64,000 bases of DNA from a virus (IMGVR_UViG_3300034095_001474:160001-224000), one strand, 5' to 3'. Shown: positions 3,211 to 22,050, numbered from the stretch's first letter. Program-made: numbers and translations. Notes: generated by a model not told the origin, from the letters alone.

Positions 3211-3252
3211 AACTTTTTCAGTAAATATAAGTATTATTTTTTACATTGTAAA

Positions 3253-3522
3253 TTATTTAACATAAGAAGATTCATTGTCATGGTCGCATTTATGACAAAT
3301 GAATAAATCAGATTTATTTGAGTCAGATGCCATCCAGTGCCAATCACATTTTTTGCAAGTTATTTCAAAATCTTTTTCATCGATAATCTCCCAATATTTA
3401 TCTTTTTTATTTTTTCTATAATAAACATTAGAACCACCGATATCTCTCATTTGATATTGGTACTCATCTTTTTTACTTTCATTAAGTAAAACGCTTAATC
3501 TATTTTTTATAAAAGTTTTCAT
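3253..3522 (-). CDS. Hypothetical protein with a C-terminal zinc ribbon
   Basis: CKKC...CHKC; N-terminus MKTFIKNRLSVLLNE; upstream ATATTTATA motif. Confidence 0.7.
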   Translation of the reverse strand: MKTFIKNRLSVLLNESKKDEYQYQMRDIGGSNVYYRKNKKDKYWEIIDEKDFEITCKKCDWHWMASDSNKSDLFICHKCDHDNESSYVK

Positions 3523-3545
3523 TATAAACTATTTTAATATAAATA

Positions 3546-3576
3546 TTGACTATTTCAAGTATAATCATTATATTTG
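3546..3576 (+). promoter_or_regulatory. Bacteroidota sigmaA-type promoter for plus-strand gene 3589
   Basis: TTG(AC) at 3546, N20, TATATTTG 3569-3576. Confidence 0.7.
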
Positions 3577-3588
3577 AAATAAAAAACT

Positions 3589-3933
3589 ATGATTACATTA
3601 ATTTTTATTCTTATTTGCTATGGAGCGTGTAACAACTTGATTTACGGTTCTGTATTTGAAGGTTGGAGAAATCTTCTAGCAAAAATGGGTACTGGAGGTT
3701 ACAGTATCCACAAATTATTCACATGCTTTATGTGTTTAGGTACTTGGATGGGTTTTGCAGTATCCGCAATCATGTTGCACTTTGGATACGGTAAATTAAC
3801 CCCTATGGGTAGTTTAGGTGTTGATAATCCTTACTTAATCGTTTTCTTAAACGGATTATTAGCAACAGCTGGTGTTTGGTTAATACACACAGCTCAAGAA
3901 GCTTTTGAAAGAGCTTTCAATAAAGAAAATTAA
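3589..3933 (+). CDS. Membrane protein with CxxC, DUF1360-like
   Basis: Three TM segments; FTCFMCLGTWMGF; has its own promoter and a terminator. Confidence 0.6.
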   Translation: MITLIFILICYGACNNLIYGSVFEGWRNLLAKMGTGGYSIHKLFTCFMCLGTWMGFAVSAIMLHFGYGKLTPMGSLGVDNPYLIVFLNGLLATAGVWLIHTAQEAFERAFNKEN

Positions 3934-3944
3934 TTACCACCAAC

Positions 3945-3975
3945 AAAAAAAGCCCTATTTAATAGGGCTTTTTTA
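3945..3975. terminator. Bidirectional intrinsic terminator between convergent genes
   Basis: A7-GCCCTAT-TTA-ATAGGGC-T7. Confidence 0.85.
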
Positions 3976-3992
3976 TTGTTAATTAATTAGAA

Positions 3993-4682
3993 TTATCTAG
4001 GTGGTAATTCTACTTTGTTTGAAACATTTTTAAATTTATCAGTTTGTTTTTTACCTTTTAAATATTCAATATTTTTTCTAGCTCTTTCTTCTTCCTCGAT
4101 AATTTCAAGTTCCTCTTCAGATAATTCTATAGGGTTACCATTCTCATCTAAAAAAGTGTGTTGTTGTGTATCGATAGTTTCTTCAAATTCTTTTTCACCA
4201 GAGGTAGCATATTCATCTACGTTTTCTGGATATAGATTTGGCGTAATTTCTTCAACAACTTCTTCTTCATAAGTTTCATCGTAACTTTCATCAATATCAA
4301 AATCATCTAATTTTGGTACCAAATCTTCTTCTAAAAAACTAAATTTAAGTCTTTTTAATTTATCTAAGCTATTTTTTTTAAATACTTCTTTAAGTTCGTT
4401 GACTTTTTCTCGAAGTAAATCATGTTTTTTCTCACGTTCAACGTTGATATCAATAGTTTTCTTTACGTAAGCTAACAATTCATCTAACCCAACACCCTCA
4501 ACTTCGCTAAATAACATGAAATAATTCATTTCATCGTTACCTTTAACTTTTTTAACTTTTGGGTCTTCTGGAACTGTCCAGCCTTCTTTAAAAACAGCAT
4601 CTACCAATGGAGTACCTTCTAAATAACGTATTCCAATAACATATGGTTGTAAAGAATCTAGTGTTTTTTGTATATTTGACAT
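3993..4682 (-). CDS. Hypothetical protein, acidic/coiled-coil
   Basis: 229-aa ORF. Confidence 0.8.
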   Translation of the reverse strand: MSNIQKTLDSLQPYVIGIRYLEGTPLVDAVFKEGWTVPEDPKVKKVKGNDEMNYFMLFSEVEGVGLDELLAYVKKTIDINVEREKKHDLLREKVNELKEVFKKNSLDKLKRLKFSFLEEDLVPKLDDFDIDESYDETYEEEVVEEITPNLYPENVDEYATSGEKEFEETIDTQQHTFLDENGNPIELSEEELEIIEEEERARKNIEYLKGKKQTDKFKNVSNKVELPPR

Positions 4683-4692
4683 ATTAATTCTT

Positions 4693-4905
4693 TTAAATTG
4701 TTATACCAGTAAATATTACCGATAAAATATATGCAATAGATATACTCAACAAATATAATGATATGTCTGAAATTTTGTATTTTCTAGGTTCCTCTTCACT
4801 TGAAAGTAAAGCTGCTTGTAAAAAGTAGTATGAATGTCTAATTAGATTTAAACATGACATAAAGAATATGATTAAAAATATTTTATTGAGTATAACTATT
4901 AACAT
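4693..4905 (-). CDS. Small two-TM membrane protein
   Basis: 70 aa, two hydrophobic stretches. Confidence 0.6.
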   Translation of the reverse strand: MLIVILNKIFLIIFFMSCLNLIRHSYYFLQAALLSSEEEPRKYKISDISLYLLSISIAYILSVIFTGITI

Positions 4906-4919
4906 AATTTTATTTTTAA

Positions 4920-5105
4920 TTAAGCAGTCTTAACTGTCTTATTTTTTGCTGAAACGTCTTGTCTCAAAGTTTGTGATAAAGTTCTGATTTCTTGCAACCC
5001 TTTTCTAAGTCTTACACCAGCAGCTTTATTACCTTTTTCATAAAATTTACTTGCATCATCTTCGATAGAAGTGATTAACGTTTTTAATTCTTCAAATTTT
5101 TCCAT
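4920..5105 (-). CDS. Histone H1-like (Hc1-family, Bacteroidota-type) DNA-binding protein
   Basis: KFYEKGNKAAGVRLRKGLQEIR motif typical of the family. Confidence 0.8.
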   Translation of the reverse strand: MEKFEELKTLITSIEDDASKFYEKGNKAAGVRLRKGLQEIRTLSQTLRQDVSAKNKTVKTA

Positions 5106-5106
5106 T

Positions 5107-5328
5107 TTAGTTTTCTTTTTGGATATTGTTATTGTTATTTATTAAGTTGCTAAATTTAGCAATACTGTTTTCAACTGTTGATGTTCTAGCTAAAATACTT
5201 TTGATTTTCATAATTTTAGTGTCAACATCTTCAGTTGAATTGATAGCGGTTTCTAATTCGGTTTCCAATTTCAATTTATCAATTGATAGTTCACCAATTA
5301 CAATGTTAAATAGTCTTTCTGTATTCAT
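5107..5328 (-). CDS. Hypothetical coiled-coil protein
   Basis: 73-aa ORF abutting the Hc1 gene. Confidence 0.65.
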   Translation of the reverse strand: MNTERLFNIVIGELSIDKLKLETELETAINSTEDVDTKIMKIKSILARTSTVENSIAKFSNLINNNNNIQKEN

Positions 5329-5379
5329 GATATAAAACTAATGTATTATTTATAAAAATAAATAGTAAAACGTATTTTT

Positions 5380-5853
5380 TTATTGATTAATCAATGATTT
5401 CTCAAAAATTTTATATATTTCAACCAGTGTATCCATATCTGCTTGTGTTTTTGACTTGTCATAAGTAAAAACATCACTCCATATTTTTAACACACCTTCA
5501 TCAGTGAAATCATATGGTTTTTTACCATCATATGTATAAAACACTTCAAGCATAAACTCTAAGAAATAATCATATAGTTTATCGCTTTTAATTGATATCC
5601 CTTCTTCTTTGAAATTCTCAATCACTTTATCCCAACACCATTTAAAATGTTTTTTCTGGTCCTCAACACCCATTACATCATCACCCATATAAGTATCAAA
5701 TGCAAGCATCAACAGTGATTGAACAAAATCACTATATAGCTCACATTTTTCGTACTTTATATTATTGGAAGCATAAATTACAGCTATGCTTTCCTTACTT
5801 ATCGGGTTATGTATATATGCCAAGAAACTAAGTTTATCGTATTTATTATCCAT
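5380..5853 (-). CDS. Hypothetical protein
   Basis: 157-aa ORF. Confidence 0.75.
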   Translation of the reverse strand: MDNKYDKLSFLAYIHNPISKESIAVIYASNNIKYEKCELYSDFVQSLLMLAFDTYMGDDVMGVEDQKKHFKWCWDKVIENFKEEGISIKSDKLYDYFLEFMLEVFYTYDGKKPYDFTDEGVLKIWSDVFTYDKSKTQADMDTLVEIYKIFEKSLINQ

Positions 5854-5897
5854 TTTCTTTTTTATTGAATGTAATACATATTCATTAAAAATAAAGG

Positions 5898-6494
5898 TTA
5901 TTTGATGTCGTTTGACTCTATTAGTGTGTAAGTGAATGAATTACCATGAATTTTTGCTGATTTTTTTACAATCTTCATAAATTCATCAAAATCTTTAACT
6001 CTTTTGAATACTTGACATCCTTCACTCCAGTTCTCAACCCATGTAGAATCTTGTCCAGCTTTGTGAATATTGATACCAAAGATACCTTCATCAATCTTTG
6101 TTTCGTCAAAGGTTAAATCTTTGTTTTTATCACGATAAACTTTTACTGATTTTGCTTGTCTTAAAGCCTCGTACTTGCCTTGGTGAAGACCTAACGCATG
6201 TGAACCTCTATATTGTCCTTCAACGAGCCTAGCAACGCCATTTACATTATGATATTGCATAACACCTTTTTTCCCTGGTTCGGTTGTGTTCATCCATTCT
6301 TTATAAACCCAATTACCAGTTTCATCTTTATACGATACTGTAATCATATCATCAAATAAGTTTGTTACTTTGTTTCCAGTTGCTGAGTTTCTAACACCTA
6401 CGATATTAACGTCATAAGTCTTATTTGCTGCGTCTTCGAAATAGACGTAACCCTTTGCAGTTAATGCTGCTTGAATTTGTTCTCTTGTATACAT
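5898..6494 (-). CDS. YkuD/L,D-transpeptidase-like cell-wall enzyme
   Basis: GINIHKAG...NWSEGCQV (H-x12-S-x-G-C); likely start MYTREQ at 6494. Confidence 0.6.
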   Translation of the reverse strand: MYTREQIQAALTAKGYVYFEDAANKTYDVNIVGVRNSATGNKVTNLFDDMITVSYKDETGNWVYKEWMNTTEPGKKGVMQYHNVNGVARLVEGQYRGSHALGLHQGKYEALRQAKSVKVYRDKNKDLTFDETKIDEGIFGINIHKAGQDSTWVENWSEGCQVFKRVKDFDEFMKIVKKSAKIHGNSFTYTLIESNDIK

Positions 6495-6504
6495 AAAATT
6501 GTTT

Positions 6505-6738
6505 TTATTCTTCTTTATTATCTTTTTTGGTTGTATCGAACCAATAATCAATTATTTTACCGTATGACCCTATAAAAGCACCCAACAATAATAATAACAA
6601 TTCTTTCCATTCACCAGCTACTTCTGTATTGGTATGGATTGAAAGCAAAATACCCAATGTGATTACACAAAAGGTAATTATAACTATTATTGTTAATAAA
6701 AATCTTCTAAAATTTGTCATGTTTATTTTGTTAACCAT
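6505..6738 (-). CDS. Putative holin
   Basis: 77 aa, two TM helices, charged C-terminus, directly after the endolysin. Confidence 0.55.
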   Translation of the reverse strand: MVNKINMTNFRRFLLTIIVIITFCVITLGILLSIHTNTEVAGEWKELLLLLLGAFIGSYGKIIDYWFDTTKKDNKEE

Positions 6739-7337
6739 GAGTAATACCTTTTGGTTAACGAACTTCTATCATCAAGACCATTTGTACCTCCATTAATTGC
6801 TTTTGTCATAAGTAATATAGTATTATCATTAATACCTTTATCAGCAATTTTCCATAAATTATTTTTTTCAAAATAAAATAACGCTGATTCAAATGAATAA
6901 TCAGTTGCGACCAAATCTGGGTTAGTTAATATCTCTGGTTTACCTAAATGCTCTGAGAAAGACTTATAGTTTCCCTTTCCAGTGGTTTGCAAAGCACCTC
7001 TACCACGAAATTTCCAACCTTCTTGTGATGCTTCATTACCATTATCCATTCTATTAGCATAAACTCTAGAAGCAATCTTGATTGGTTGTCTAGCGTAAGC
7101 TTCAGCTGTTGTAGTGTTGAAGTACTTTCCGAATGTACCTAACAATCCTTTGGCACCGTAATTTAAGTTTTCACTAAACGCTACGTAACCACCAGTCTCG
7201 TGGGCTGTTTGACCAAAGAAGTGTGCTGCTCTTTCTGGTGTCATTTTAAAATAAACCATTGCTGCTTTAAGTGTTGCTGGTCCAAAAGAACCATCATTTT
7301 TAACCCCAATCTTTTCTTGTAATTTTATTAAACTCAT
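6723..7337 (-). CDS. Glycoside hydrolase family 19 endolysin with a short N-terminal PG-binding-like segment
   Basis: HFFGQTAHETGG, FRGRGALQTTGKGNY, INGGTNGLDDR; N-terminal DGSFGPAT. Confidence 0.9.
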   Translation of the reverse strand: MSLIKLQEKIGVKNDGSFGPATLKAAMVYFKMTPERAAHFFGQTAHETGGYVAFSENLNYGAKGLLGTFGKYFNTTTAEAYARQPIKIASRVYANRMDNGNEASQEGWKFRGRGALQTTGKGNYKSFSEHLGKPEILTNPDLVATDYSFESALFYFEKNNLWKIADKGINDNTILLMTKAINGGTNGLDDRSSLTKRYYSWLTK

Positions 7338-7382
7338 AATTTATTGTTTAAAAATGTTATCTGTTTATAAATATCATATAAT

Positions 7383-7415
7383 AAAAAAAGGTACCCTTTA
7401 TGAGTACCTTTTTTT
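7383..7415 (-). terminator. Intrinsic terminator
   Basis: GGTAC/GTACC stem flanked by A and T runs, after the 7436 stop. Confidence 0.65.
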
Positions 7416-7435
7416 ATATTATATTTTATTTAAAA

Positions 7436-9034
7436 TTACATTTCTGTATTTTCATCTTCTTCTTGTTCTTCCTCTTCTTCTTCAGATTCAGTAACATAAT
7501 CGTCCATTTCTTCAGAAAGTGGTGCGAAAAAGTTTTCACCAATTTTAACACCTTCATCTACACTACCTTTAAACATGTGAATATCTTTTTTTGCATCAGC
7601 AGCGTGAGGAACTGTAATTTTATCCCAATTTTTTTCACCAACTTTTACACTTTCGATTTCTTCAGTTTCAGTTATATCAATGTTTAATTTTTTTGGTGGT
7701 TTTGGCATTTGGTTTTTATCTTTTTTACCCATACTGTAATCAATTCTAGTATCTTCTTCATCATCATCGTCTTCTTCTTCATCATCTTTTGCTTCAGATT
7801 CTTTAAGAGTTACATGTTTAGTTGCGTCAGCAGATTTTTTCTTAACATCTTCCCAGTTACCATTTTTAGGTGCTGGTGCTTTTGTACCTTTTTCAGTTGA
7901 TACAGAACCTTCAACGTGTTTTTTAGCTTCTGGTGCATGTGATACAGCATCATCTAAATCACCTTCTTTAGCAGCTGGTGCTTGAGTTCCTTTATCTTTA
8001 GATACAGAACCTTCAACATGTTTAGTTGCTTCTGGAGCTTTTTTCTTGATATCTTCTAAGTTACCAGTTTTAACTTTTACACTTTCGATATCAGCACCTT
8101 CCATCAAATCTTTAGTTTTAGCCCAAATATCTGTAAATGCAGCATTTTCATCTAATCTAGCTTTACCTTTTACAAGACCAAGAGTTTCGTTTGATTTGTA
8201 ACCCATAAGATGTTTCATGTGAGCCATATCTTCGTTAACCATAGTTTTGTCAGATGCCATAAGAACAATAGCTCTACCTTCAGTCAAAGTACCTTCCCAA
8301 CGGATTTTATAGTTTTCAACACCATCAGTCATTTCGAATGTTTTATTATCTACTCTGTATGATTCTGGTATCATTTTAAGTGCGTTTCCAACACCGTTAA
8401 ATTCTTTTTTAAAGTTAAGTCTTTTCATTCCTTCTTTTATTTGTGGTTTATTATTATTTTTGTTATTATTTTCACCTAATGCTGAGAAAATTTGCATTGG
8501 TTGTGCTCCTTTAGGTATTGTTTCAATATCATCACCAAAACTCATAATACCAGTTGAAGCAGCTACTCTTTTATCAAATGATGCTCTAGCGTTTTTAACT
8601 AAATTTTTACCAAAATCTGGTCCAGTAAAACCTATTTGTTCTGGTACTACATTAGCCCATTCTGGATTGTTACCCATTCTAGTTGAACCTTCAATTGCTT
8701 CTAAAGCTCTTTCTTGAAATTCAGTAATTGGGTCTCTATCATATTGAATCATTTCTTGACCGTTCATGATTTCCATTTGTTCATGGAATTCTTTTTCTTT
8801 TTCATCACTATAATTGAATTTGTTCTTAACAATTTCAGTGTTGTCTATATTTGTGTTCAAAGATTTTTCATAACTAGCTAAATCTTTATTCATATCGTTA
8901 ACACCTTTTTTGTTCTCTTCACCAGATTTTTTAATAACAGCTTTAGTCCCATCTATTCCAGGTGTTTTTGATGTTTCATTTTTGGCTTCGTTAACAAATT
9001 GTGTTAAGTGTTTTTTAATTATGTTTTTGTCCAT
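7436..9034 (-). CDS. Acidic hypothetical protein with 34-aa repeats, putative head-internal/core protein
   Basis: 532 aa; many (L/I/V)xE motifs; upstream GATATTTATA. Confidence 0.75.
   Translation of the reverse strand: MDKNIIKKHLTQFVNEAKNETSKTPGIDGTKAVIKKSGEENKKGVNDMNKDLASYEKSLNTNIDNTEIVKNKFNYSDEKEKEFHEQMEIMNGQEMIQYDRDPITEFQERALEAIEGSTRMGNNPEWANVVPEQIGFTGPDFGKNLVKNARASFDKRVAASTGIMSFGDDIETIPKGAQPMQIFSALGENNNKNNNKPQIKEGMKRLNFKKEFNGVGNALKMIPESYRVDNKTFEMTDGVENYKIRWEGTLTEGRAIVLMASDKTMVNEDMAHMKHLMGYKSNETLGLVKGKARLDENAAFTDIWAKTKDLMEGADIESVKVKTGNLEDIKKKAPEATKHVEGSVSKDKGTQAPAAKEGDLDDAVSHAPEAKKHVEGSVSTEKGTKAPAPKNGNWEDVKKKSADATKHVTLKESEAKDDEEEDDDDEEDTRIDYSMGKKDKNQMPKPPKKLNIDITETEEIESVKVGEKNWDKITVPHAADAKKDIHMFKGSVDEGVKIGENFFAPLSEEMDDYVTESEEEEEEQEEDENTEM
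7815..8065 (-). repeat. About 2.5 copies of a 102-nt (34-aa) coding repeat
   Basis: GATACAGAACCTTCAAC at 7899 and 8001 (102 nt apart); GNLEDIKKKAPEATKHVEGSVS / GDLDDAVSHAPEAKKHVEGSVS / GNWEDVKKKSADATKHV. Confidence 0.85.
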
Positions 9035-9080
9035 CTTTAATTGATTTTATTATAAATATCTTAGTTTTTAGTAAAGTTTA

Positions 9081-10718
9081 CTACTTATTATTTTTTGATT
9101 CAATTATTCTTTTAACTGCATCCATTGATAAACCAGTCTTTTTAGCAATTGTTTTGTAAATTTTGTTTTCATCTAAAGAAGGTGCACTTACATTTCCTTT
9201 TGTTTTCTCAACACTAACTACACCATCAATAGCACCAGAACTACAACCAGAACCAGCTGGTTTATTGTTTAAATCAACACAGTCGTTAAATTTAACGAAT
9301 CCACCATTGTTTAATTGTGTTTCTTTGAAAGCATTTGGTTTTTTAGCTAATCCCTCAAAAACTACTGGTACATTTGTAACTATCGGCATTTCTTTTTTAA
9401 TTGGTTTAGCACTTAATTTAGTAGTATAATCAAATCCACGTCCACCAGTATTCGTAGCACCACCACCAAGTGACATTTCATCAATACCCTTATCGAACAA
9501 TCTGTATTGTCCAACTGGTTCTTTAACTGGTTCTTTTATTGGAACTATTTTTGATTTTAATCTATCTATTGTTGATTGGTCTGTTGATTGGTCTGCTTTT
9601 TGAGTTGCGACATCATTTGCCAAATCACGTGCATCAAATCTAGCAGTATCTTGGTCACGTGAGGTTTTTTGTGTGTCGTATAAAGCTTTAGCAGTTGTTT
9701 GTGATAAACCTTGACCCATTTTTCTTTGAATGAATGCTTCTTCATCTTCACCATGCATTTCATTCAATGGTTCTTCATTAAACTTCATTTTTCGTAAAAA
9801 TGCAAGAAAATCTATATTTTCTTCTTGATTAGGGTCATATTTAATACTTAAAACCCAATTTTTTAAATCTTCATCAAATTTATTGATGTTCATTCCATCA
9901 TGCCAACCTTTGATACCTTCACCTACACTTAATTCACCTATATTTTTATTAACATAATTTTTAATAGCTTCGTTTGTTCTTTCGTAATCACCATATTCAT
10001 AGTCAATATCATTATCAGTTTCATCACCAACTGGTTCTTGTTGTAATTCACCACCAGTTATTTCTTTATTAAAAATATCATCTATGAACGGATGATAATA
10101 AAAAGAATAGTATTCACCATCAGAACCTTCTAAAATAGCAATTTCTTCATTAAATACAACAACAGCAAAACTTAATTGTTGTTGTCCTTCTTCTTCATCT
10201 AATTCACCAGTAACTTCACTATCTTGTTCACCACCACTAATCATTTGTGATAATTCATTTTCGATTGTTTGTTTAGCTTCTTCAGCTGAACCTAAATCTC
10301 TAGATATACTATATTTACCATCTTTTTTAATGATAAGTCCTTTTGATTCCAATTCACCATAAATTTCATCATAACTTAAACCATTTTCAGACCAAAATTC
10401 TGAATAACTATAAAGATTTTTTATTAGCTCTAATGTTTCTTGTTTTAAATCACCATTACTAGTAGATTCATGAATTGGAGGTTTAGGTACTAGTGTTTTA
10501 CCGAATTTACTTAGTTTAGACGTAGGCACCCCTTTAACTGTTACATTTTTTTTAATATTAAAATCAGTAGAGACCTCACCCAAATTTTTAATTTCTTTAC
10601 CAGCAAATCCTTTTTTAAAAGTATTATCTACTATATTTTTTTTAAGTTTTGGAAAACCTTCCTTTAAAAGATTTGTAATTTTGTCAAATTGTTCTTTGGT
10701 GATTTTTATTTTTTTCAT
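9081..10718 (-). CDS. Hypothetical protein, putative head-associated
   Basis: 545 aa; starts MKKIKITKEQF..LLKE; many LxE motifs. Confidence 0.75.
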   Translation of the reverse strand: MKKIKITKEQFDKITNLLKEGFPKLKKNIVDNTFKKGFAGKEIKNLGEVSTDFNIKKNVTVKGVPTSKLSKFGKTLVPKPPIHESTSNGDLKQETLELIKNLYSYSEFWSENGLSYDEIYGELESKGLIIKKDGKYSISRDLGSAEEAKQTIENELSQMISGGEQDSEVTGELDEEEGQQQLSFAVVVFNEEIAILEGSDGEYYSFYYHPFIDDIFNKEITGGELQQEPVGDETDNDIDYEYGDYERTNEAIKNYVNKNIGELSVGEGIKGWHDGMNINKFDEDLKNWVLSIKYDPNQEENIDFLAFLRKMKFNEEPLNEMHGEDEEAFIQRKMGQGLSQTTAKALYDTQKTSRDQDTARFDARDLANDVATQKADQSTDQSTIDRLKSKIVPIKEPVKEPVGQYRLFDKGIDEMSLGGGATNTGGRGFDYTTKLSAKPIKKEMPIVTNVPVVFEGLAKKPNAFKETQLNNGGFVKFNDCVDLNNKPAGSGCSSGAIDGVVSVEKTKGNVSAPSLDENKIYKTIAKKTGLSMDAVKRIIESKNNK

Positions 10719-10724
10719 AGTATG

Positions 10725-10967
10725 TTAGTTATTTTTATTAGTGATATTATTTACCCAAGTTGCTCTCTTAACCCAAAGAGTTTTATATAATTGTGTCAAC
10801 ACGTTTTTAGTTATATCAACAATTTTATCTTCCAACTCTTTTTCGTTTTTTATTCTATCTTTAACAATCTTCTCAATTTTGTTTTTAAACTCACGACTGT
10901 CCATATAGACACTGATTTGTTTATTGACTTCAGTTTTAGTTAAATCCTCGTTTATTTTCTTTTTCAT
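10725..10967 (-). CDS. Hypothetical protein
   Basis: 80 aa, MKKKINED; upstream ATATTTATT. Confidence 0.7.
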   Translation of the reverse strand: MKKKINEDLTKTEVNKQISVYMDSREFKNKIEKIVKDRIKNEKELEDKIVDITKNVLTQLYKTLWVKRATWVNNITNKNN

Positions 10968-11008
10968 TTGGGTAACTTGTTTTATATTAATAAATATAAT
11001 AATTTAAC

Positions 11009-11033
11009 AAAAAAAGCCCTAACTAGGGCTTTT
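11009..11033 (-). terminator. Intrinsic terminator
   Basis: A7-GCCCTA-AC-TAGGGC-T4; stem nearly identical to the 3945 terminator. Confidence 0.75.
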
Positions 11034-11052
11034 ATTTATTATTTATTAAATT

Positions 11053-11751: not shown

Positions 11752-11757
11752 AAAACT

Positions 11758-12321
11758 TTATTTTTTTATTTTAATGTTATTTAAGATACTTACAGTGTCT
11801 TTCATACAATCACTATATACTTTAGCTGTATAATAAGGTTTAAATTTTAATAAACCCCAGAAGTATTTGTGCTCGTAATCTTTATATAAGAATGTTGTTA
11901 ATTTATCGTTGAACTCTTTATTTGTAAATGCTATTGAGTCTTTTTTTATGTAACCAGATAAATTATAACATTTTTCTTTAAGTGAAAAATAACTCTTTTC
12001 AGATACACTATCTTTTCTTAGTATACTACTTGTAATAACTGAATCTCTAAAATTGTATCTAGTTTCAATTATGTTGGTGATAAATTTTGTTTTAATATTT
12101 AATTCATTAGCCAAACTATCATATTTTGGATATAGTTTCTCCAATTCTTTTGCTGTTAACTCTTGTTGTCTTGATTTATCAGTCATCACAGCAACATAGT
12201 TGTCATTGAATCTTTTTCTTTCACTTTTCTCATTTTGGTATAGTTTAAATACTAAACCCAATGATGTGAATAACAATAATACAACAATAAACAATCCTAT
12301 TATAATTTTATTTCTTATCAT
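11758..12321 (-). CDS. N-terminally anchored membrane protein (DUF6549-like; possible spanin)
   Basis: One N-terminal TM, coiled coil, RDS repeats, K.FWGLLK near the C-terminus. Confidence 0.45.
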   Translation of the reverse strand: MIRNKIIIGLFIVVLLLFTSLGLVFKLYQNEKSERKRFNDNYVAVMTDKSRQQELTAKELEKLYPKYDSLANELNIKTKFITNIIETRYNFRDSVITSSILRKDSVSEKSYFSLKEKCYNLSGYIKKDSIAFTNKEFNDKLTTFLYKDYEHKYFWGLLKFKPYYTAKVYSDCMKDTVSILNNIKIKK

Positions 12322-12323
12322 AA

Positions 12324-12887
12324 TTAAATTCCTTTTTTATCATCTAAATTATCATCATACAAATATTGTTTAGTATCTTTCATATTTGAATTTAAGTTAT
12401 CTCTAAACCCTTGTAATTTTTTTGATTCATTATCATTTGCTGTAGATGTACCATTTAATTTAACGTCAGTTACGTTTAATGACATAGTAAAAGTTAAACC
12501 ATTTTGTAAACCAGTGATTACCAAGTCTTTTTCTTTACCATTTTCACCAGATGAAATATATATACTAGTTACAGTTGAATTAGTCACATTCATTAATTCA
12601 TCAGATAAATCTTTATATCTTTGGTCATCTTTATCCAATTCGATATAAGTATCATCAATAACAAAACCTTCCAATGGTTCGGCTGAATTATTTTCTGGTG
12701 ATTCAGCCATTTCTGGTTCTTCCTCTGGTAAATCATCACCAGGTACCATAGCATTTTGCGGTTCAGCCACTGGTGCTGCCATTGGTGCTGGAACTTCATC
12801 AGCTTCTTTGATTAATGGTTTTTGACTATTTCTAATGATATCCATCATTCTTTTAGTCATGTCGTGTTCATTGATGTTTTCTTTCAT
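12324..12887 (-). CDS. Hypothetical acidic protein
   Basis: 187 aa; MKENINE...LIKE; P/A/E-rich linker. Confidence 0.75.
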   Translation of the reverse strand: MKENINEHDMTKRMMDIIRNSQKPLIKEADEVPAPMAAPVAEPQNAMVPGDDLPEEEPEMAESPENNSAEPLEGFVIDDTYIELDKDDQRYKDLSDELMNVTNSTVTSIYISSGENGKEKDLVITGLQNGLTFTMSLNVTDVKLNGTSTANDNESKKLQGFRDNLNSNMKDTKQYLYDDNLDDKKGI

Positions 12888-12892
12888 ATTCT

Positions 12893-14847: not shown

Positions 14848-14880
14848 CCTTTTTACTTTTAAAATAAATATTCAAAAAAC

Positions 14881-14906
14881 AAAAAAGGGAACATATTCCC
14901 CTTTTT
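14881..14906 (-). terminator. Intrinsic terminator after the sigma gene
   Basis: A6-GGGAA-loop-TTCCC-T run. Confidence 0.7.
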
Positions 14907-14907
14907 A

Positions 14908-15738
14908 TTATTCATTGATTAAATCATATAAGTCATGAGCGTTATGTCTTAATTTACGAATCGCTTTTTCTTTTATCTGTCTAATTCTTTCTTTTGTTAA
15001 ACGGTATTTATCACCAATTGCTTCAAGTGTCATAGCCTCACATTCAGTATCAATACCAAAATAACATTCAATAATACTTCTCTCTCTATCATCTAAAACA
15101 GAAAGTGTTTCATTTAATTGTTTTTTTATTCTATCATCAATTTCTAATTGATTTTCTTCTGGAATCTCACCAGGAATTAAATCAATCAATTCATCACCTT
15201 CTTCATTTATAAATTCATTAAGTGATGCACATTTAGGATATCTAGTCATTGACAGTTCTGTATCACCATCCATAATTTCACCAAATATTGGTTCTCTTTC
15301 GTTTGCGTATTCAAACTTAGCAATCTCTTTATTTAATTTTGAGATTTTACTAATAACATTTGCTGGTAATCTTACAATTCTGGCATTGTCATTAAGACTT
15401 TGAATTATTGATTGTTTAACCCACCATACAGCATATGAAATAAATCTAAACCCTCTTTTATAATCAAACCTAGTTGCAGCTTTTACCAACCCATAATTAC
15501 CTTCACTTATCAAATCTGACAATTGTAATCCTTGACCTTGATATTCTTTAGCTATGGATATGACAAATTTAAGATTGGCGTTTACCAATTCTTCTATTGC
15601 TTTACCATCACCATTTTTTATTCTTTTTGCTAATTCTACCTCTTGTGTAGATGTTAAAATCACTGATTTTCTTACATCTTTAAAATATTTTGAAATACTG
15701 TCTTCAGTCTCAAAATTAACATATCTTTTATTTACCAA
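14908..15738 (-). CDS. rpoD: RNA polymerase sigma70 factor, Bacteroidota primary-sigma-like, lacking region 1.1
   Basis: ANLKFVISIAKEY, DLISEGNYGLVKAA.RFD, FISYAVWW, RIVRLP, TLEAIG...LTKERIRQI; the in-frame start is TTG. Confidence 0.93.
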   Translation of the reverse strand: MVNKRYVNFETEDSISKYFKDVRKSVILTSTQEVELAKRIKNGDGKAIEELVNANLKFVISIAKEYQGQGLQLSDLISEGNYGLVKAATRFDYKRGFRFISYAVWWVKQSIIQSLNDNARIVRLPANVISKISKLNKEIAKFEYANEREPIFGEIMDGDTELSMTRYPKCASLNEFINEEGDELIDLIPGEIPEENQLEIDDRIKKQLNETLSVLDDRERSIIECYFGIDTECEAMTLEAIGDKYRLTKERIRQIKEKAIRKLRHNAHDLYDLINE

Positions 15739-15780
15739 AACGTTTCATTTTTACTCTCTCTTTTCGTTATTTTACTTATG

Positions 15781-15811
15781 TAAATATACGACAAAAAACC
15801 CTAAAAGTCAA
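15781..15811 (-). promoter_or_regulatory. Variant sigmaA-type promoter of the sigma gene
   Basis: TTG(AC) 15811-15809, N20, TATATTTA 15788-15781. Confidence 0.65.
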
Positions 15812-15824
15812 GGGTTTTTGTCAT

Positions 15825-16361
15825 TTATTTTACTAAAAGTGGCATTATTTTTTTATCATAATCTGACATATTTTCAATGCCATTATCGATAATTTTATTC
15901 ATAATAGTTTCTCTTTCTTTGGGTGTCATATCTTCAATTTCTGATTCAGTAAATCTTCTGGGTCTTACATCTCTTTTAATATGAATACCTTTTTCTTTAA
16001 AAGTTCTACTATTTTCTTGAATAATCTTAGCATCTTCAATAGCATCCATCAAATTTGATGCCCTTTTTTTCAAGATATCTTTATTCATTTCATCTAAAAA
16101 ACCAAATAACCCCTTATGAATTTCTTCTTTGGTTATATTATAACCAGAATTTTCTGGGTCTAAATCAAACACAAAAAAACTTCTTTGGTTTAATTTGAAC
16201 CAATCCGTAAGCTCTTTAGGTTCTAGAGCAGAGGAAAAAGTAGCAATAACAATACCTCTAGCATCTAAAATATTTGGTTTATCATCGCTAACTTTTTCGA
16301 TTTCAATGGTAACACCCTTGGTGTCCCCCATTATAACAACACAATAATTTCTAAATTTCAT
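15825..16361 (-). CDS. Hypothetical protein
   Basis: 178-aa ORF with its own promoter. Confidence 0.8.
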   Translation of the reverse strand: MKFRNYCVVIMGDTKGVTIEIEKVSDDKPNILDARGIVIATFSSALEPKELTDWFKLNQRSFFVFDLDPENSGYNITKEEIHKGLFGFLDEMNKDILKKRASNLMDAIEDAKIIQENSRTFKEKGIHIKRDVRPRRFTESEIEDMTPKERETIMNKIIDNGIENMSDYDKKIMPLLVK

Positions 16362-16375
16362 ATATCACTTTTTAA

Positions 16376-16406
16376 CAAATGTACGTTTATTTTTATAATA
16401 ATACAA
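16376..16406 (-). promoter_or_regulatory. Bacteroidota sigmaA-type promoter
   Basis: TTG 16406-16404, N20, TACATTTG 16383-16376. Confidence 0.7.
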
Positions 16407-16408
16407 TT

Positions 16409-18787
16409 TTATTTCATAGAAATTTTTGAGAGGTTGTTACTTCCTTTAATAACAGTAACAACATTATCACCCCAATCACGAACTAAGTCATTGTGTGTGA
16501 TGAAGAAAACTATCTCATACATATCTTTTATTTTATCAAAAAGAACTTTCAATTTCTCTAAATTTTCTGGTGCTACCTTACCTAATACTTCATCAAAAGT
16601 GATAAAATTAGGCATTGGCAGCGTAGATAATTTACCCAACACAGCTCTCAACGCTAAACTAGCCGCTGTTTTCTCTAAACCAGAACCAGATTTTAACAAT
16701 TTAGATACTTCATCTTTAACCAATAGAAACTGAACATCATTCTTATCATTAATAAATATCTCGACATCGAAATCTACAACATCATCTAACAATCTTTGTA
16801 CTTCAGAATTTATAATTGGCAACACAGAACGCAGTACCAATTTACTAACACCTTTCTTTCCGACCAATTCAATATATATTTTGAAAATTTTATCAATCTC
16901 TTCTTCTTTTTTTATTGTTTCGATTAATTTGGTTTTTACCTCAATACTTGTTTTATGGTTTTTGATATCAGTTTGAACACGTTCTATCTTTGCTATTGCA
17001 TCATCTTTAGAATATTCCAATACTGAAATGTCAGTTTTAACTCTGGATACTTCAATATCAATCTTTTTATTTAACTCAATAGCGTCTAAATTAAGTTTGT
17101 ATTTCTTTAAATCATTACGTTTTGAAACTATATCGTTTTTCAATGAACCAATTTGAACTTCTAATCTATCTCTGTTTAACTCATGTTTATTTTTATCATC
17201 AATAAGCACTTTAGTTTCATTAAGAACATCCAATTCAGTATTTATGGTTTTAATTGCATTAGATAATTTGGTAGACTCTTTTTTTAATTTTTCAATATCT
17301 AACTCATGTTTAGCAATGTGTTCAGTATTATCAACATCATCTAATTTTCTGTTGCATGATTGACAGATACCTCCAGCAACCAAACCTTCAACAACCAATT
17401 CCAATCTTTCTACTTCAGCATTCTTTACAGCTTTTGCCGATGTTTGTGTTGATAAATCTTTTGTCAATGCATGATGACGGTCTTCATCAAATGATACAAC
17501 ACCAATTTTATTTATTTTTAAAACCAACTCATCAACACTAGTTTTAAAACCAACACCTTTTTCAATCAAATTTGAAATATCAATTTCTAAATTAGAAGGG
17601 TTTAATTCAGAGATAGTTACATCGATTTTTTCTTTGTTATTTATCAATTTATCATTCTCTTCATTCAAACTAGTAATTTCTAATTTAGCTTTTTCTAATT
17701 TATCATTAAGACTAGTTTCTAATTCAACAGCTAAGATACCTTTTTCTTTATGGTCATCAATTTCTTCAGTCAATGTAATAACATCATAATCGTTAGATTT
17801 TTTCTTTCTAGCAAATTCATTGTACATTGTTCTAGCAGCAGCTTCTTTCAATTCTAGTATCTCCAACCCAATAAGTCTTGTCAAAACTTTTCCAGATTCA
17901 CTAGTAGTCAATCCTATTAAATCATCCAAGTTCTTCTCTGTAGCTAATACAAGCATCTCAAAATCTTTTTCGCTACCAATAGTTTCTTTTAATCTTTTAG
18001 TCGTTCTAGTAGCATCTTCTTCATTTAATTGCTCTTCTTCACCATCTGGTAATAACTTGTAATAGTTTACTCTATTTGTTACAGTCCAACCACCACCTTT
18101 TTTAGCGGTACGTTTCATTTTACGTTCAATGATTGTTTCTTCATTCTCAATATCAATCATACCACGTACAGTCAATTCATTCTTATCACTATATGTGTTG
18201 AATATCTGCTCGTTTGTATCAGTTTTTGTTGTACTACCATGCAACAAGAATTTAACAGCATCAATTGTAAGTGTTGTTTTACCACCTTGATTAGCTGGAA
18301 TAGAATTTACAACAGTCAAACCTCTCAATTTACTCAAAGGTAAATAATTATCTTCACCAAAAGATAAAAAATTATTTACCATAAGCCATTTAAGATTCCA
18401 ACTTCTATGTTGTGTTTCATTCAAGTCAACGTTTAATTCACCGTTTACTTTGTCATCTAAAGCAATGATACGATTAAAGTCAATCGTTTTACCATCTCTA
18501 TCAATTAACTCCTTCATAAGAGCTCTTTGATAGTTCACGTCCATGATGTTCTCAATACCAGCACCAGTGATTTCAATTACATCACCATTGGCAGTTGTTC
18601 TTACTGGTCTATAAACAACATTGATATTGCTCTTGTTTACACCATACTTGTTAGCAAAATAGTTTCTTACTCTATTTTTAGCTTCTTTGCTATAGTTCTC
18701 TGGACGGTCATCCCAATAAACTTTAATCTTTGCATACGGTGATATTGCTTTAATATCCATAACTTCTACTTGTTCATTATTCTCCAT
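16409..18787 (-). CDS. sbcC: SbcC/Rad50/gp46-like ATPase with an N-terminal extra domain
   Basis: Walker A NQGGKTT, long coiled coil, Zn hook CQSC, signature GSGLEK, Walker B ITFDE, H-loop ITH; likely start MENNEQ. Confidence 0.9.
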   Translation of the reverse strand: MENNEQVEVMDIKAISPYAKIKVYWDDRPENYSKEAKNRVRNYFANKYGVNKSNINVVYRPVRTTANGDVIEITGAGIENIMDVNYQRALMKELIDRDGKTIDFNRIIALDDKVNGELNVDLNETQHRSWNLKWLMVNNFLSFGEDNYLPLSKLRGLTVVNSIPANQGGKTTLTIDAVKFLLHGSTTKTDTNEQIFNTYSDKNELTVRGMIDIENEETIIERKMKRTAKKGGGWTVTNRVNYYKLLPDGEEEQLNEEDATRTTKRLKETIGSEKDFEMLVLATEKNLDDLIGLTTSESGKVLTRLIGLEILELKEAAARTMYNEFARKKKSNDYDVITLTEEIDDHKEKGILAVELETSLNDKLEKAKLEITSLNEENDKLINNKEKIDVTISELNPSNLEIDISNLIEKGVGFKTSVDELVLKINKIGVVSFDEDRHHALTKDLSTQTSAKAVKNAEVERLELVVEGLVAGGICQSCNRKLDDVDNTEHIAKHELDIEKLKKESTKLSNAIKTINTELDVLNETKVLIDDKNKHELNRDRLEVQIGSLKNDIVSKRNDLKKYKLNLDAIELNKKIDIEVSRVKTDISVLEYSKDDAIAKIERVQTDIKNHKTSIEVKTKLIETIKKEEEIDKIFKIYIELVGKKGVSKLVLRSVLPIINSEVQRLLDDVVDFDVEIFINDKNDVQFLLVKDEVSKLLKSGSGLEKTAASLALRAVLGKLSTLPMPNFITFDEVLGKVAPENLEKLKVLFDKIKDMYEIVFFITHNDLVRDWGDNVVTVIKGSNNLSKISMK

Positions 18788-19187
18788 AAATATCTCTTTT
18801 ATTTTTCTTTTGTTCAATTTCTAATTTCTGTAAAGTATCATTCCATTCTTTTTGGAAGTGTTCAGCATCTTTTTTGTAAGTATTTCGTTCATCTTCCAAT
18901 TTTGTTATCTTTTCAGATAATTTTTTCACTTGTTTATCATCAGTGATATACACTTCTTTTTCAGTAGGAACTTCAACTTTAACTTCTACAATTTTCTCTA
19001 CGATTTTTTCAACGATTTTTTCTACTTCAATTTTCTTTTCTATTACTTGAGGTGTTGCCCCAAACTTTTCAACAGTAAAACCTTGTTTAAGTATTTTAAT
19101 TGTGAACTCATCAATATTCGTGATATTGTTTATCCTACAATAATCCCAAATTTCATCTTTTAAGTCTTTAGATATCTCCATCTTCAA
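18777..19187 (-). CDS. Hypothetical protein with VEKI repeats
   Basis: IEVEKIVEKIVEKIVEV. Confidence 0.75.
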   Translation of the reverse strand: MKMEISKDLKDEIWDYCRINNITNIDEFTIKILKQGFTVEKFGATPQVIEKKIEVEKIVEKIVEKIVEVKVEVPTEKEVYITDDKQVKKLSEKITKLEDERNTYKKDAEHFQKEWNDTLQKLEIEQKKNKRDIYGE

Positions 19188-19398
19188 ATTTTCCTAAGTC
19201 TTCTCTTGTTTGATTCAATAGAACAACTTCATTGTCTTTTTCATCAACATTTATCATTAATACTGGTTTGTCAACTCGATAGATTAAACTGTTGTCATCC
19301 TCTGGGTCTAAATAACCGAACTCACCATTTACTACGGTAAAGTTATCCATGTGTTCTGGGAGTTTGTTTATAAACTCTTTTAATTCTGATAGCATCAT
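19168..19398 (-). CDS. Hypothetical protein
   Basis: 76-aa ORF overlapping its neighbour. Confidence 0.65.
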   Translation of the reverse strand: MMLSELKEFINKLPEHMDNFTVVNGEFGYLDPEDDNSLIYRVDKPVLMINVDEKDNEVVLLNQTREDLGKFEDGDI

Positions 19399-19399
19399 A

Positions 19400-19651
19400 T
19401 TAATTACTTTTTATATTACCTTTTATTGTTTCTTTTATTTTATCATACTCAGAACTAGTATAAGCATTTTCAGTTTCAATAACTTCATCGAAAGATTTGG
19501 AACAAACATGTTCTGGTTTCATAACCAATACATAAAGTGTTTCATCAACTCTTATGCTGGTTTTTGTACCAATTTCAGTTGTATATAGATTATTTTCTCT
19601 CCATGATAAAAAATCATCAACACATGAAGAGATAACAGCTATTGTCTTCAT
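19400..19651 (-). CDS. Hypothetical protein
   Basis: 83 aa; ATGA overlap with the sbcD stop. Confidence 0.65.
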   Translation of the reverse strand: MKTIAVISSCVDDFLSWRENNLYTTEIGTKTSIRVDETLYVLVMKPEHVCSKSFDEVIETENAYTSSEYDKIKETIKGNIKSN

Positions 19652-20460
19652 AAGTTTGTAATTTTTTCTTCACCATTCTCAATATCTTCTAATGATTTAA
19701 TCTTGAATTGGTAATAAGGAGATTTATTTTCTACATCATGTTCTGTAAATGTTTTTGTTTCAACATCCCAAAACAAGAAACCATGTTTACTTACATTCTC
19801 ACCAAAGTTTTGTTGAATAAGTGATGATGGATAAGCAATGATAATACCTTTATGGTTAAATGTTTGTCTTTTGTGAATATCACCCAACATGACCATATCA
19901 CAACCTTCAAAGATATCCAACTCAGCACCATGGTCAATTTCATAACCAATATCTGTTTTAGCATTAATCAAAGGTGCGTGAAACAACCCAATATATGTTT
20001 TATCATCACCAAATTCACCTCTTGCTGACTCAATGTCTGGTCTAGCGTTTTCTTCAAAGATAGAATAAGTACACCAAACAATATTGTCATCTAAATAACA
20101 CTTTGATTCTTTGAAATAGTTAATATCTTTATCACCCAAGAATTGTACCATAGGTGACACACTATCCATTCTACCTATATTGTTTTCCAATAAGTCATGA
20201 TTTCCAGCAATAAGTATAACTGGTGCTATTTCTTCTAGTTTTCTCAAGAACCATGTACATAGAATCAACTGCTCATTTGAAATAACAATCTTCTGGTGAA
20301 CCAAGTCACCAGCAACTACTATTCTAACTTCTTCTCTAGTGTAATCTGAAACAAGTTCTTTTACGTCTTTCAACATAGTTTTAAAAACATCTTTATACTC
20401 GTCATGTAATCTAAGAGTTCTGATATGTATATCAGCTAAATGGATAACGGCTTTGACCAT
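19648..20460 (-). CDS. sbcD: SbcD/Mre11/gp47-like metallophosphoesterase nuclease
   Basis: HLADIH, VVAGDLVH, IAGNHD, GLFH, MLGDIH; likely start MVKAVI. Confidence 0.9.
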   Translation of the reverse strand: MVKAVIHLADIHIRTLRLHDEYKDVFKTMLKDVKELVSDYTREEVRIVVAGDLVHQKIVISNEQLILCTWFLRKLEEIAPVILIAGNHDLLENNIGRMDSVSPMVQFLGDKDINYFKESKCYLDDNIVWCTYSIFEENARPDIESARGEFGDDKTYIGLFHAPLINAKTDIGYEIDHGAELDIFEGCDMVMLGDIHKRQTFNHKGIIIAYPSSLIQQNFGENVSKHGFLFWDVETKTFTEHDVENKSPYYQFKIKSLEDIENGEEKITNL

Positions 20461-20461
20461 A

Positions 20462-20740
20462 TTATAAAATATCTTTATCTTTTTCAAGTGGTTGAAGTCT
20501 GAACGCTTCAATTATTTCGTTATTCTCAACTCTAATTAACGTTTGTTCACCCATACCTTTAAACAAATCATCTTTTAAATAAAAACCATCTTCCCATTCA
20601 TTACTTAACTCCCATGCAACTGGATTCATCATCTTATAGTCTGTTGGTAACGTGAATGGGTCGTATCTAACACCTCTAGTGTCAGTTAGTTTAAATTCTT
20701 TTTCCTCACCTTTTATTGGTTTGTTTTCTTTTTCTATCAT
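20462..20740 (-). CDS. Hypothetical protein
   Basis: 92-aa ORF with 1-nt gaps on both sides. Confidence 0.7.
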   Translation of the reverse strand: MIEKENKPIKGEEKEFKLTDTRGVRYDPFTLPTDYKMMNPVAWELSNEWEDGFYLKDDLFKGMGEQTLIRVENNEIIEAFRLQPLEKDKDIL

Positions 20741-20741
20741 A

Positions 20742-21524
20742 TTATGCGTTTTTCATTAAATTATAGTGATGCATTTCAATAAGTTTTTTCGCTTCATGTT
20801 TCATATACATGATTTGAATCTTTTCGAATGATTTAGTTTCTTTATCCCAATACCCAATACATATTTGTCTACATTTACGACCAGGAAATTCCATTTCATA
20901 CATGTAAGTATATACTGATAACTGAAGTGTATAAACTGACCATTGACAAGACTGCATATGGTCAAATGGTTTAAAAAGTGTTTTGTAACCAAATTGGTCA
21001 AAGAAGTTAAACTCTCTATTGGTTTTCCAATCCCAAACATCAAAGAAAACATCATCAATATCAATAATTAAATCCGACATACCAGCCAACTCATATTCTT
21101 CAGAAAATAGAATTCTTTCTGGCCATACTGCAATACCTTCATCTATCTTTAGATTTTCATATCCTTCAATTACTTTTTGTTCAAATTCACCTTCTTCATC
21201 TTCAGTTGGAAAATACCATTTGTTAGCCAATAAATAACGTTCAACAATATCATGAACCTTTGTACCATAAATGTTAGCCTCATCATTAAGTTGTTGCCAA
21301 AAATCTAAAATTTGTTGTTGGTTCAAACCAATGTAACGCTCTTGCTTTGCGTTGTCTGGTTGTCTAGTAATAGCCAAAGATACTGCTTCTGAATCGAAAT
21401 GCGGTTCAATAGAAGAAAGTGTTGTAGTTACAGATTTGTAAATCTTTCCAGTTACTCTATGATGATACTTATGTTCAATTGGTTCCAAGAAAACTGGACC
21501 CTCCCATAATTTTGCTTTACTCAT
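20742..21524 (-). CDS. PD-(D/E)XK exonuclease (Cas4/exonuclease V-like)
   Basis: SVTTTL, GTKVHDIVE, LAGMSDL, VWDWKT, QLSVY. Confidence 0.8.
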   Translation of the reverse strand: MSKAKLWEGPVFLEPIEHKYHHRVTGKIYKSVTTTLSSIEPHFDSEAVSLAITRQPDNAKQERYIGLNQQQILDFWQQLNDEANIYGTKVHDIVERYLLANKWYFPTEDEEGEFEQKVIEGYENLKIDEGIAVWPERILFSEEYELAGMSDLIIDIDDVFFDVWDWKTNREFNFFDQFGYKTLFKPFDHMQSCQWSVYTLQLSVYTYMYEMEFPGRKCRQICIGYWDKETKSFEKIQIMYMKHEAKKLIEMHHYNLMKNA

Positions 21525-21539
21525 AATTTATTTTTAATA

Positions 21540-21570
21540 CAAATATACTATATTTTTCTTCTATATGCAA
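21540..21570 (-). promoter_or_regulatory. Bacteroidota sigmaA-type promoter for the nuclease/sbcDC block
   Basis: TTG 21570-21568, N20, TATATTTG 21547-21540. Confidence 0.7.
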
Positions 21571-21591
21571 GTATTTATTGTAAAACTTATT

Positions 21592-22050
21592 ATGAAAGAT
21601 TTTATAAAACGTAAACTTAATGAAGTACTTGTTAAAGAATACTATGATGATGATTTTGATTCAGAGTTTGTAGATTTTAGTAATGAAAAACCTAAAAAAC
21701 CTAAAAAAGAAGATAGTTTTAAACTTTTAATACAAAAATTAAAAGCTTTTAAAACACCAAATAAAATAAATATGTATACTTTCAAATTTGGTAATACTGA
21801 AATATTTTTCAAACAAACTGGTAAAAAAAATACAATAGAATTAGATTTAATCAAAACACCAGACCAATATAAAGGTAAAGGTAGTGCTAGAACCGCAATA
21901 ACCCAATTTTTAAATATTATAGATGAATTAAAAATTAGAGTTGTTTTGTCTGTTGTTCCTAGAGATAAAACAACTTCTGAAAAAGGATTAGAAGATTTTT
22001 ATCAATCAGTAGGTTTCCATAAAACTAGTGATTTTGAAATGATGCGTTAA
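21592..22050 (+). CDS. GNAT-family N-acetyltransferase
   Basis: LIKTPDQYKGKGSA (motif A-like) and GLEDFYQSVGF (motif B-like); likely start MKDFIKRKLNE at 21592 after TATTTAT. Confidence 0.65.
   Translation: MKDFIKRKLNEVLVKEYYDDDFDSEFVDFSNEKPKKPKKEDSFKLLIQKLKAFKTPNKINMYTFKFGNTEIFFKQTGKKNTIELDLIKTPDQYKGKGSARTAITQFLNIIDELKIRVVLSVVPRDKTTSEKGLEDFYQSVGFHKTSDFEMMR

Follow-up and report, generated by a model that had tools for sequence, protein, structure and literature searches.

A portable N-terminal leader ending in hydrophobic-x-Glu on unrelated proteins of a Bacteroidota jumbo phage lineage, a probable capsid-targeting propeptide

We analysed a 64,000-nucleotide stretch of viral DNA (IMGVR_UViG_3300034095_001474:160001-224000, hereafter the window) in which unrelated proteins encoded between positions 3253 and 22050 start with the same short N-terminal leader. 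It is 11–16 residues long and has the consensus M-K-x-(F/L)-I-K-x-x-L-x-E, frequently prolonged to ...x-(L/F)-(L/V)-x-E. The existence of this leader, far beyond chance, was confirmed. Because it is shared by unrelated enzymes and ends in a site of the type that the T4 head protease cuts, this tag most probably represents the lineage's counterpart of the T4 packing signal, that is, a capsid-targeting propeptide which would probably be removed by the prohead protease, as is the case for T4's internal proteins and for Alt.

Within the window, MK-x-F-I-K-x-x-L...(L/V)-N-E opens three unrelated proteins (starts at 3522, 9034 and 21592), each just 3′ of a TATTTAT (class II) promoter motif. An 89-aa Zn-ribbon protein (3253..3522, minus strand) carries the leader MKTFIKNRLSVLLNE (3478-3522) ahead of a small domain and a CxxC...CxxC Zn ribbon, with TATTTAT (3539..3545, minus strand) 23 nt upstream of its start. 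The leader MDKNIIKKHLTQFVNE (8987-9034) of a 532-aa repeat protein (7436..9034, minus strand) precedes two conserved domains, APEAxKHVEGS... repeats and an acidic tail; here the motif (9052..9058, minus strand) lies 24 nt upstream. On the plus strand, a 152-aa GNAT acetyltransferase (21592..22050) begins with MKDFIKRKLNE-VLVKE (21592-21639), which holds two tandem L-x-E sites, 20 nt downstream of TATTTAT (21572..21578). Its open reading frame (ORF) opens 9 codons before 21592, at 21565; since the TATTTAT motif falls inside these 9 codons and MKDFIK opens nine of the 10 orthologs retrieved from the protein database, translation probably starts at 21592. A conserved 80-aa protein (10725..10967, minus strand) has a shortened leader, MKKKINE, behind a TATTTAT at 10990-10996. 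The distance from motif to start was 20–29 nt for these four genes. The initial annotation had described unrelated proteins that start alike behind class II motifs: all the N-termini that it quoted were found in place, and its naming of the cargo as Zn-ribbon protein, GNAT and repeat protein was correct throughout. Searches of Pfam and PHROGs returned no family for the 89-aa, 532-aa and 152-aa proteins, nor for a 545-aa protein of the same cluster described below.

The GenBank phages gave zero matches, either by megablast of positions 3000-23000 or by tblastn of the 532-aa protein and a 1522-aa protein. In IMG/VR, orthologs of the 532-aa protein were present at 26 loci, one of which lies in a complete genome of 368,549 bp (G001). 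This genome is syntenic with the window, most of whose 63 predicted genes were matched at 24–85% identity, and it was used in full for statistics and gene context.

We found a regular expression of the leader at the first ATG of two window genes, against 0.09 expected from shuffles (P=0.003), and of six genes in G001, against 0.8 expected, a count matched by 0 of 2000 shuffles. The density of the core motif at residues 3–6 was 9–15 times that inside proteins. That the leader should be commoner in class II genes than in others had been named at the outset as one of the points on which the proposal would stand or fall, and such an excess was observed both in the window (3/11 genes with the promoter motif versus 1/52 without; Fisher p=0.015) and in G001 (5/45 versus 5/578; Fisher p=3e-4). 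In the latter genome ATATTTAT stands upstream not only of leader genes but also of protease, baseplate, endolysin and fibre-like genes. Scanning IMG/VR for promoter plus leader (TATTTAT-N12-20-ATG AAR NNN TTY ATH AAR N6 YTN NNN GAR) yielded 49 matches, many on contigs of 190–380 kb, all of which open ORFs of 57–381 aa or run off the fetched stretch; a control with the same codons in another order yielded 0 matches. One window gene (37374-38219, MEVIKRKILLE) fitted a loose regular expression, yet its G001 ortholog reads MKVEKRKIYLE and it was excluded from the count.

In all three window families the leader persists while the flanking sequence varies. Across 21 aligned orthologs of the 532-aa protein, M1, K3, I6, L10, F13 and E16 are invariant, the residue preceding E16 varies (N, S, K, A) and indels start immediately after E16. 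The Zn-ribbon family retains MKxFIKxxL..LL(N/T)E, with shorter forms such as MKTLIKNLLKE joined directly to the ribbon. Similarly, GNAT orthologs (47–91% identity) retain MKxFIKxKLNE and a second site, L(L/V)KE; a single ortholog with LNQ at the first site still has the second one, LLKE. The MKKKINE of the 80-aa window protein is a shortened form: the leader is complete in its orthologs, with MKDLIKNRLNEE and MKGIIKQKLNEE as examples.

We examined the terminal glutamate with a relaxed IMG/VR scan, using the same pattern minus the Glu codon. It gave 81 matches, including 9 chance-like ORFs of at most 14 aa and 72 real ORFs. Glu11 was present in 49 of the real ORFs and 10 more ended in hydrophobic-x-Glu at residues 14–16, which makes 59/72, while Asp occupied residue 11 only twice. 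The leader thus ends in hydrophobic-x-Glu as first proposed, with a free P2 and with Asp almost never in place of Glu. Residue 13, which the pattern does not fix, was L, I or M in 26 of 34 sequences, and a second (L/I/V/F/M)-x-E was found within residues 12–22 in 16/34 sequences, as compared with 14% of background windows. Synonymous codons varied freely at leader positions (ATA, ATT and ATC for Ile5; TTA, CTT, TTG and CTA for Leu9), with a slight preference for those ending in A/T; selection therefore works at the level of the peptide, not of the RNA.

Once the leader was masked, the 49 scan matches fell into 16 families, and further unrelated families with the leader were found in the flanks of related loci, in G001 and by the relaxed scan. 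Cargo assigned by Pfam comprised NUDIX (PF00293), GP88, a 2H/Acb1-like phosphoesterase and a weaker match of ADP-ribosyltransferase (ART)/PARP-like type. A leader-bearing protein of locus L059 matched ART-PolyVal (PF18760) with 42.6 bits against a cut-off of 31.2, and a leader-bearing CCA-adding enzyme matched PolyA_pol (E=6e-40). The CCA-adding enzyme occurs with the leader in L120 (6009-7169, plus strand) and L092, and without it in L079, L066 and G001 (230647-231765); the leaderless enzymes align from residue 15–17, immediately past ILME, where the cut is predicted. NUDIX proteins were arranged as leader-NUDIX, leader-linker-NUDIX or leader-Zn ribbon-NUDIX. The leader is thus portable in the sense intended by the initial annotation: it is an amino-acid-level unit, common to unrelated folds and present or absent within one enzyme family. 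The Zn-ribbon and GNAT genes of the window have no ortholog in G001 and so behave as accessory genes.

Other arrangements were noted among the cargo genes. The Zn-ribbon gene of the window (3253-3522) ends without the NUDIX domain that most of its relatives have after the ribbon, and at L001:6472-7234 two leader-bearing genes, for a 70-aa protein and a 188-aa ribbon-NUDIX protein, adjoin each other. The 2H phosphoesterase gene of G001 (310822-311394; L052:6822-7394), whose product matches the 2′-5′ RNA ligase superfamily and Acb1, an inhibitor of the cyclic oligonucleotide-based anti-phage signalling system, has a leader-like start, MNIKQRLREVLLE. In a family of 75–86 aa (L077, L076, L060, L103, L087, L101, L058) the leader MKEFIKDIFTE runs into a transmembrane segment, and in another group (MKNFIKSMFGGG...) MKxFIK is present and the Glu absent.

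The AlphaFold2 (AF2) model of the GNAT protein (pLDDT 80.7) has a helix at residues 2–17, disorder at 18–40 and a confident domain at 41–152. With this domain (21712-22050) Foldseek retrieved GNAT acetyltransferases, including the anti-CRISPR protein AcrVA5 (6iuf, target-normalised TM score 0.79), and a search of the ESM Atlas also led to the GNAT family. As modelled, this domain is a minimal GNAT. AcrVA5 ranks among its best structural matches, which hints at a counter-defence role but amounts to no more than a lead. A related-locus search in IMG/VR found no relatives of this gene, and the protein database did yield relatives. The AF2 model of the 532-aa protein was poor (pLDDT 45.6) but had a helix at residues 3–21; for this protein the ESM Atlas search gave only one lead, at 0.76.

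The leader co-occurs with a protease of the T4 gp21 family and with a capsid protein that carries the same site. Peptidase_S77 was detected above the Pfam cut-off in G001, G002 and G006 and in 5/5 other large leader-bearing genomes searched (G011-G015); the six large leader-bearing genomes searched span 306–380 kb, and all six have it. After the protease gene of G001 (88456-89181) come genes for an acidic scaffold and a gp23-type capsid protein; the latter can be aligned to mature T4 gp23 starting at the conserved VRR arm. Six genomes have ...L-(L/I)-(T/N/S)-E | (S/A/T)TT... at the capsid N-terminus, 17 residues ahead of this arm, with a hydrophobic P3, a free P2 and Glu as P1. In the window, the 89-aa protein has a leader with the ending LLNE|S, a tetrapeptide identical to that of two of the capsid proteins. 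In 5/7 proteases, (L/I)-x-E stands 12–15 residues from the C-terminus; C-terminal autoprocessing has been reported for gp21, gp175 and gp245 (PMC9026906, PMC5694885). With its S77 proteases, and with hydrophobic-x-Glu sites in the capsid propeptide and near most protease C-termini, the lineage very probably uses the T4 cleavage rule, (L/I)-x-E. The components of the protease-cleavage system put forward by the initial annotation are thus encoded by the relatives, down to the conserved L-(L/I)-x-E of the capsid protein.

A simple model of leader function would be as follows. Genes behind TATTTAT promoters would give proteins whose first 11–16 residues form a free amphipathic helix, joined by a flexible linker to the folded domain. 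The helix would dock the protein on the scaffolding core during prohead assembly, the gp21-type (Peptidase_S77) prohead protease would cut after the Glu of (L/I/V/F)-x-E, and the mature protein thereby freed within the head would exit with the DNA at the next infection. Several points weigh against this model. Docking, cleavage, packaging and injection in the clade, which is known here from its genes, are proposed by analogy with T4, and the leader has no sequence similarity to the T4 capsid-targeting sequence (CTS). The window contains no protease, scaffold or capsid gene, and their presence in its genome is presumed from synteny with the relatives. Flavobacterium phage immuto, the nearest cultured phage when capsid proteins are compared, possesses a T4-like head module but was not matched by the leader pattern. 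The remaining 13/72 ORFs of the relaxed scan are MKxFIK membrane proteins of other families without the Glu. TATTTAT is also found upstream of a DnaB-like helicase gene in the window and, because the motif precedes non-virion genes too, the 'late' nature ascribed to class II promoters is not established. Moreover, (L/I)-x-E is common in K/E/L-rich proteins, an amphipathic helix alone can give such spacing, and part of the cargo, the CCA-adding enzyme for example, would be of use in the cytoplasm as well.

A helix that serves virion assembly or docking without being cleaved, or that addresses proteins to the tail, baseplate or neck, its conserved Glu being used for binding instead of proteolysis, would also suit the evidence at hand for docking, namely helix propensity and conservation. 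Targeting and processing do sit in different, separable residues of the T4 CTS (PMC9026906), and the 532-aa and 545-aa leader genes adjoin a gene with a gp19-like tail-tube domain. Against such a helix, the Glu is nearly invariant while P2 is free and Asp avoided, tandem second sites are enriched, the same L-x-E tetrapeptide recurs at the capsid propeptide boundary and at protease C-termini, and leaderless orthologs begin exactly after the Glu; we consider this explanation unlikely. Action in the infected cell appears just as unlikely, whether the leader is taken as a cationic amphipathic helix for a membrane or compartment, as a handle for chaperones or regulated degradation, or as an optimum for translation start on late mRNA. 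Its K2, K6 and K/R7-8 together with F4, I5, L9 and L13 are typical of membrane-binding amphipathic helices, the 13 MKxFIK proteins mentioned above run on into transmembrane segments, the CCA-adding enzyme, NUDIX and GNAT could work in the cytoplasm, and leader codons lean slightly towards A/T endings. Codon choice is however otherwise free, so it is the amino acids that are selected; the MKxFIK membrane proteins lack the Glu and form a separate group, and membrane binding would leave Glu specificity, tandem L-x-E and the match to the capsid propeptide unexplained.

We also considered that promoter and first codons might form a recombination cassette that spreads between genes, as do the conserved gene starts at T4 plastic loci, and encodes a functionless peptide. 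The TATTTAT(A/T)(A/T)TAAA context and the leader do travel together, and the Zn-ribbon and GNAT genes of the window, having no ortholog in G001, behave as accessory genes. Yet it is the amino acids of the leader that are conserved and not its nucleotides (the Ile5 and Leu9 codons vary), and the leader survives deep ortholog divergence, which makes a cassette of this sort very improbable. As for a chance likeness of K/I/L/N/E-rich N-termini, composition is indeed extreme in a genome of 30% GC and MK starts are common, but the shuffles, the Fisher tests, the 49 matches versus 0 in the permuted control and the conservation in orthologs reject it, and its probability is close to nil. The capsid-targeting propeptide removed by the prohead protease is thus the reading that we prefer.

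A second type of leader, (M)KK-I-K-I-T-x-x-Q-Y-x-x-I..., was found on the 545-aa protein (9081..10718, minus strand), which starts with MKKIKITKEQFDKITNLLKE (10659-10718; K-I-T-x-x-Q-Y...LLKE). Its motif, K[ILV]x[ILV][TS]xxQ[YFAM]xx[ILVM], occurred 25 times at N-termini versus 1 internal occurrence in 329,052 residues. This leader always runs into (L/I)-x-E, with tandem duplicates at the start of some orthologs of the 545-aa protein, and it is present on three other G001 proteins (65101, 147580, 150666). Its target may be another layer of that core which the head contains. Also in the cluster, a 187-aa acidic, Pro-rich protein (12324..12887, minus strand) begins MKENINE... and has L-I-K-E at residues 25–28; in 16 orthologs the N-terminus is fully conserved, the site has L or I as P3, a variable P2 (K, S, T) and invariably E as P1, and the sequence is hypervariable after the site. 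It is possibly a prohead core or internal protein. Further away, a very acidic protein of 251 aa (56786..57541, minus strand) starts with MRKKVTLNPELLKEE..LISE and contains EEPME (EEPMEEPME) repeats and a coiled-coil region. Its LLKE is kept in three IMG/VR orthologs and in G001, its gene adjoins that of a gp32-like single-stranded DNA-binding protein, and no TATTTAT was found directly upstream of the start at 57541. It looks like a scaffold or core protein, and its place in the leader system is uncertain. The (L/I)xE-ending leaders that had been listed as similar at 10718, 12887 and 57541 are thus real and conserved; they differ in kind from the MKxFIK leader, and the membership of the last is uncertain.

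The window has a GC content of 30% and carries nearly all its genes on the minus strand. Its products include T4-type baseplate wedge proteins, a gp32-like single-stranded DNA-binding protein, endolysins and a long block of unassigned structural proteins. Inside the cluster of leader genes lies the gene of a 232-aa protein (11053-11751, minus strand), which is rich in Pro and Lys over its N-terminal third and has a gp19-like tail-tube domain at its C-terminal end (phrog_4542, E=3e-7). We checked whether the clade corresponds to the bS21-encoding Bacteroidetes huge phages (PMC9723584), in the description of which capsid targeting is unmentioned, and did not find bS21 in G001. Our literature search found no description of an MKxFIKxxLxE leader system. 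To our knowledge, no member of the leader-bearing clade has been cultured.

Packaged or injected phage proteins are usually learned only via virion proteomics of cultured phages. Should the tag act as the T4 CTS does, sequence would be enough to predict which proteins are packaged in a large clade of uncultured lake-water jumbo phages. We tentatively suggest, as a possibility still short of an even chance, that the leader is an 'address label' from which the injected set of this uncultured Bacteroidota phage clade (genomes of 190–380 kb) may be read, and that this set would consist largely of ready-made enzymes of counter-defence or host takeover: the AcrVA5-like mini-GNAT, NUDIX hydrolases, ADP-ribosyltransferases, the Acb1-like 2H phosphoesterase and a CCA-adding enzyme, which might repair tRNA ends after damage. 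GNAT, NUDIX, ART and 2H phosphoesterase are enzyme types now linked to counter-defence, and their delivery in ready-made form would outpace host immunity. The tag would further lend itself, as a tool, to bringing foreign proteins into the capsids of phages of Bacteroidota.

The CTS of T4, reportedly studied by Mullaney and Black (1996), is carried by the internal proteins IPI, IPII and IPIII and by Alt, which are processed by the prohead protease gp21 (PMC9026906, PMC3012670), an enzyme that cleaves after L/I-x-E (PMC9026906). The first 10 residues of IPIII are enough for packaging, and Asp at position 10 stops processing but not targeting (PMC9026906). T-even internal proteins have only the CTS in common (PMC3012670), which has been proposed as the route by which T4-like phages load varied proteins (PMC9026906). 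As in T4, the leader described here is an N-terminal extension of 10–20 residues on otherwise unrelated proteins and ends in (L/I)-x-E with a required Glu. Likewise, the relatives have genes for an S77 protease and an acidic scaffold as well as for a gp23-type capsid protein, which itself has an L-x-E site, at which the cut is predicted, and the cargo genes are accessory and variable, among them an ADP-ribosyltransferase (T4 Alt is a packaged, gp21-processed head protein). In contrast to T4, the leader reads MKxFIKxxLxE, unrelated to the MKTYQEFIAE of the T4 CTS; it often takes a bipartite form, in which two L-x-E sites lie some 5 residues from each other, and coexists with a second class (KITxxQY...LxE). 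The cargo is also much wider (NUDIX, GNAT, 2H phosphoesterase, CCA-adding enzyme, Zn ribbon and small membrane proteins), Bacteroidota serve as hosts, the genomes measure 190–380 kb and the system has come to light through genes alone. On every sequence-level trait compared, the present system appears to be of the T4 kind and the mechanism itself would not be new; what is new is the leader, its breadth and the catalogue of its cargo.

Giant phages of the phiKZ type (phiKZ and SPN3US, with proteases gp175 and gp245) similarly process many head proteins after Glu by means of a diverged gp21 homolog (PMC5694885, PMC9026906). The diverged SPN3US paralogs gp53 and gp54 share the N-terminus MANFVKSKLARESVE, and their phiKZ homolog gp93 is cut at SLE-13 (PMC5694885). 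This N-terminus follows the same F-(V/I)-K-x-K-L-x-x-E pattern and is strikingly close to MKDFIKRKLNE; several redundant cleavage sites within propeptides, predicted ones in the present clade, are another shared trait. However, the motif in those phages is S/A-x-E and their propeptides mostly exceed 100 residues, whereas here P3 is L/I/V/F and leaders have 11–16 residues. Their shared N-terminus is moreover reported for paralogs and not for many unrelated folds, and in the present clade a scaffold and a gp23 of T4 type can be recognised. Finally, the polyvalent proteins found in phages and conjugative elements contain effector domains proposed to enter the host with the DNA. Their effector domains are of the same kinds as the cargo found here, with ART-PolyVal (PF18760) as that of the leader-bearing protein of L059; they are giant multi-domain fusions, whereas the leader is carried by small single-domain effectors, each with its own promoter and leader.

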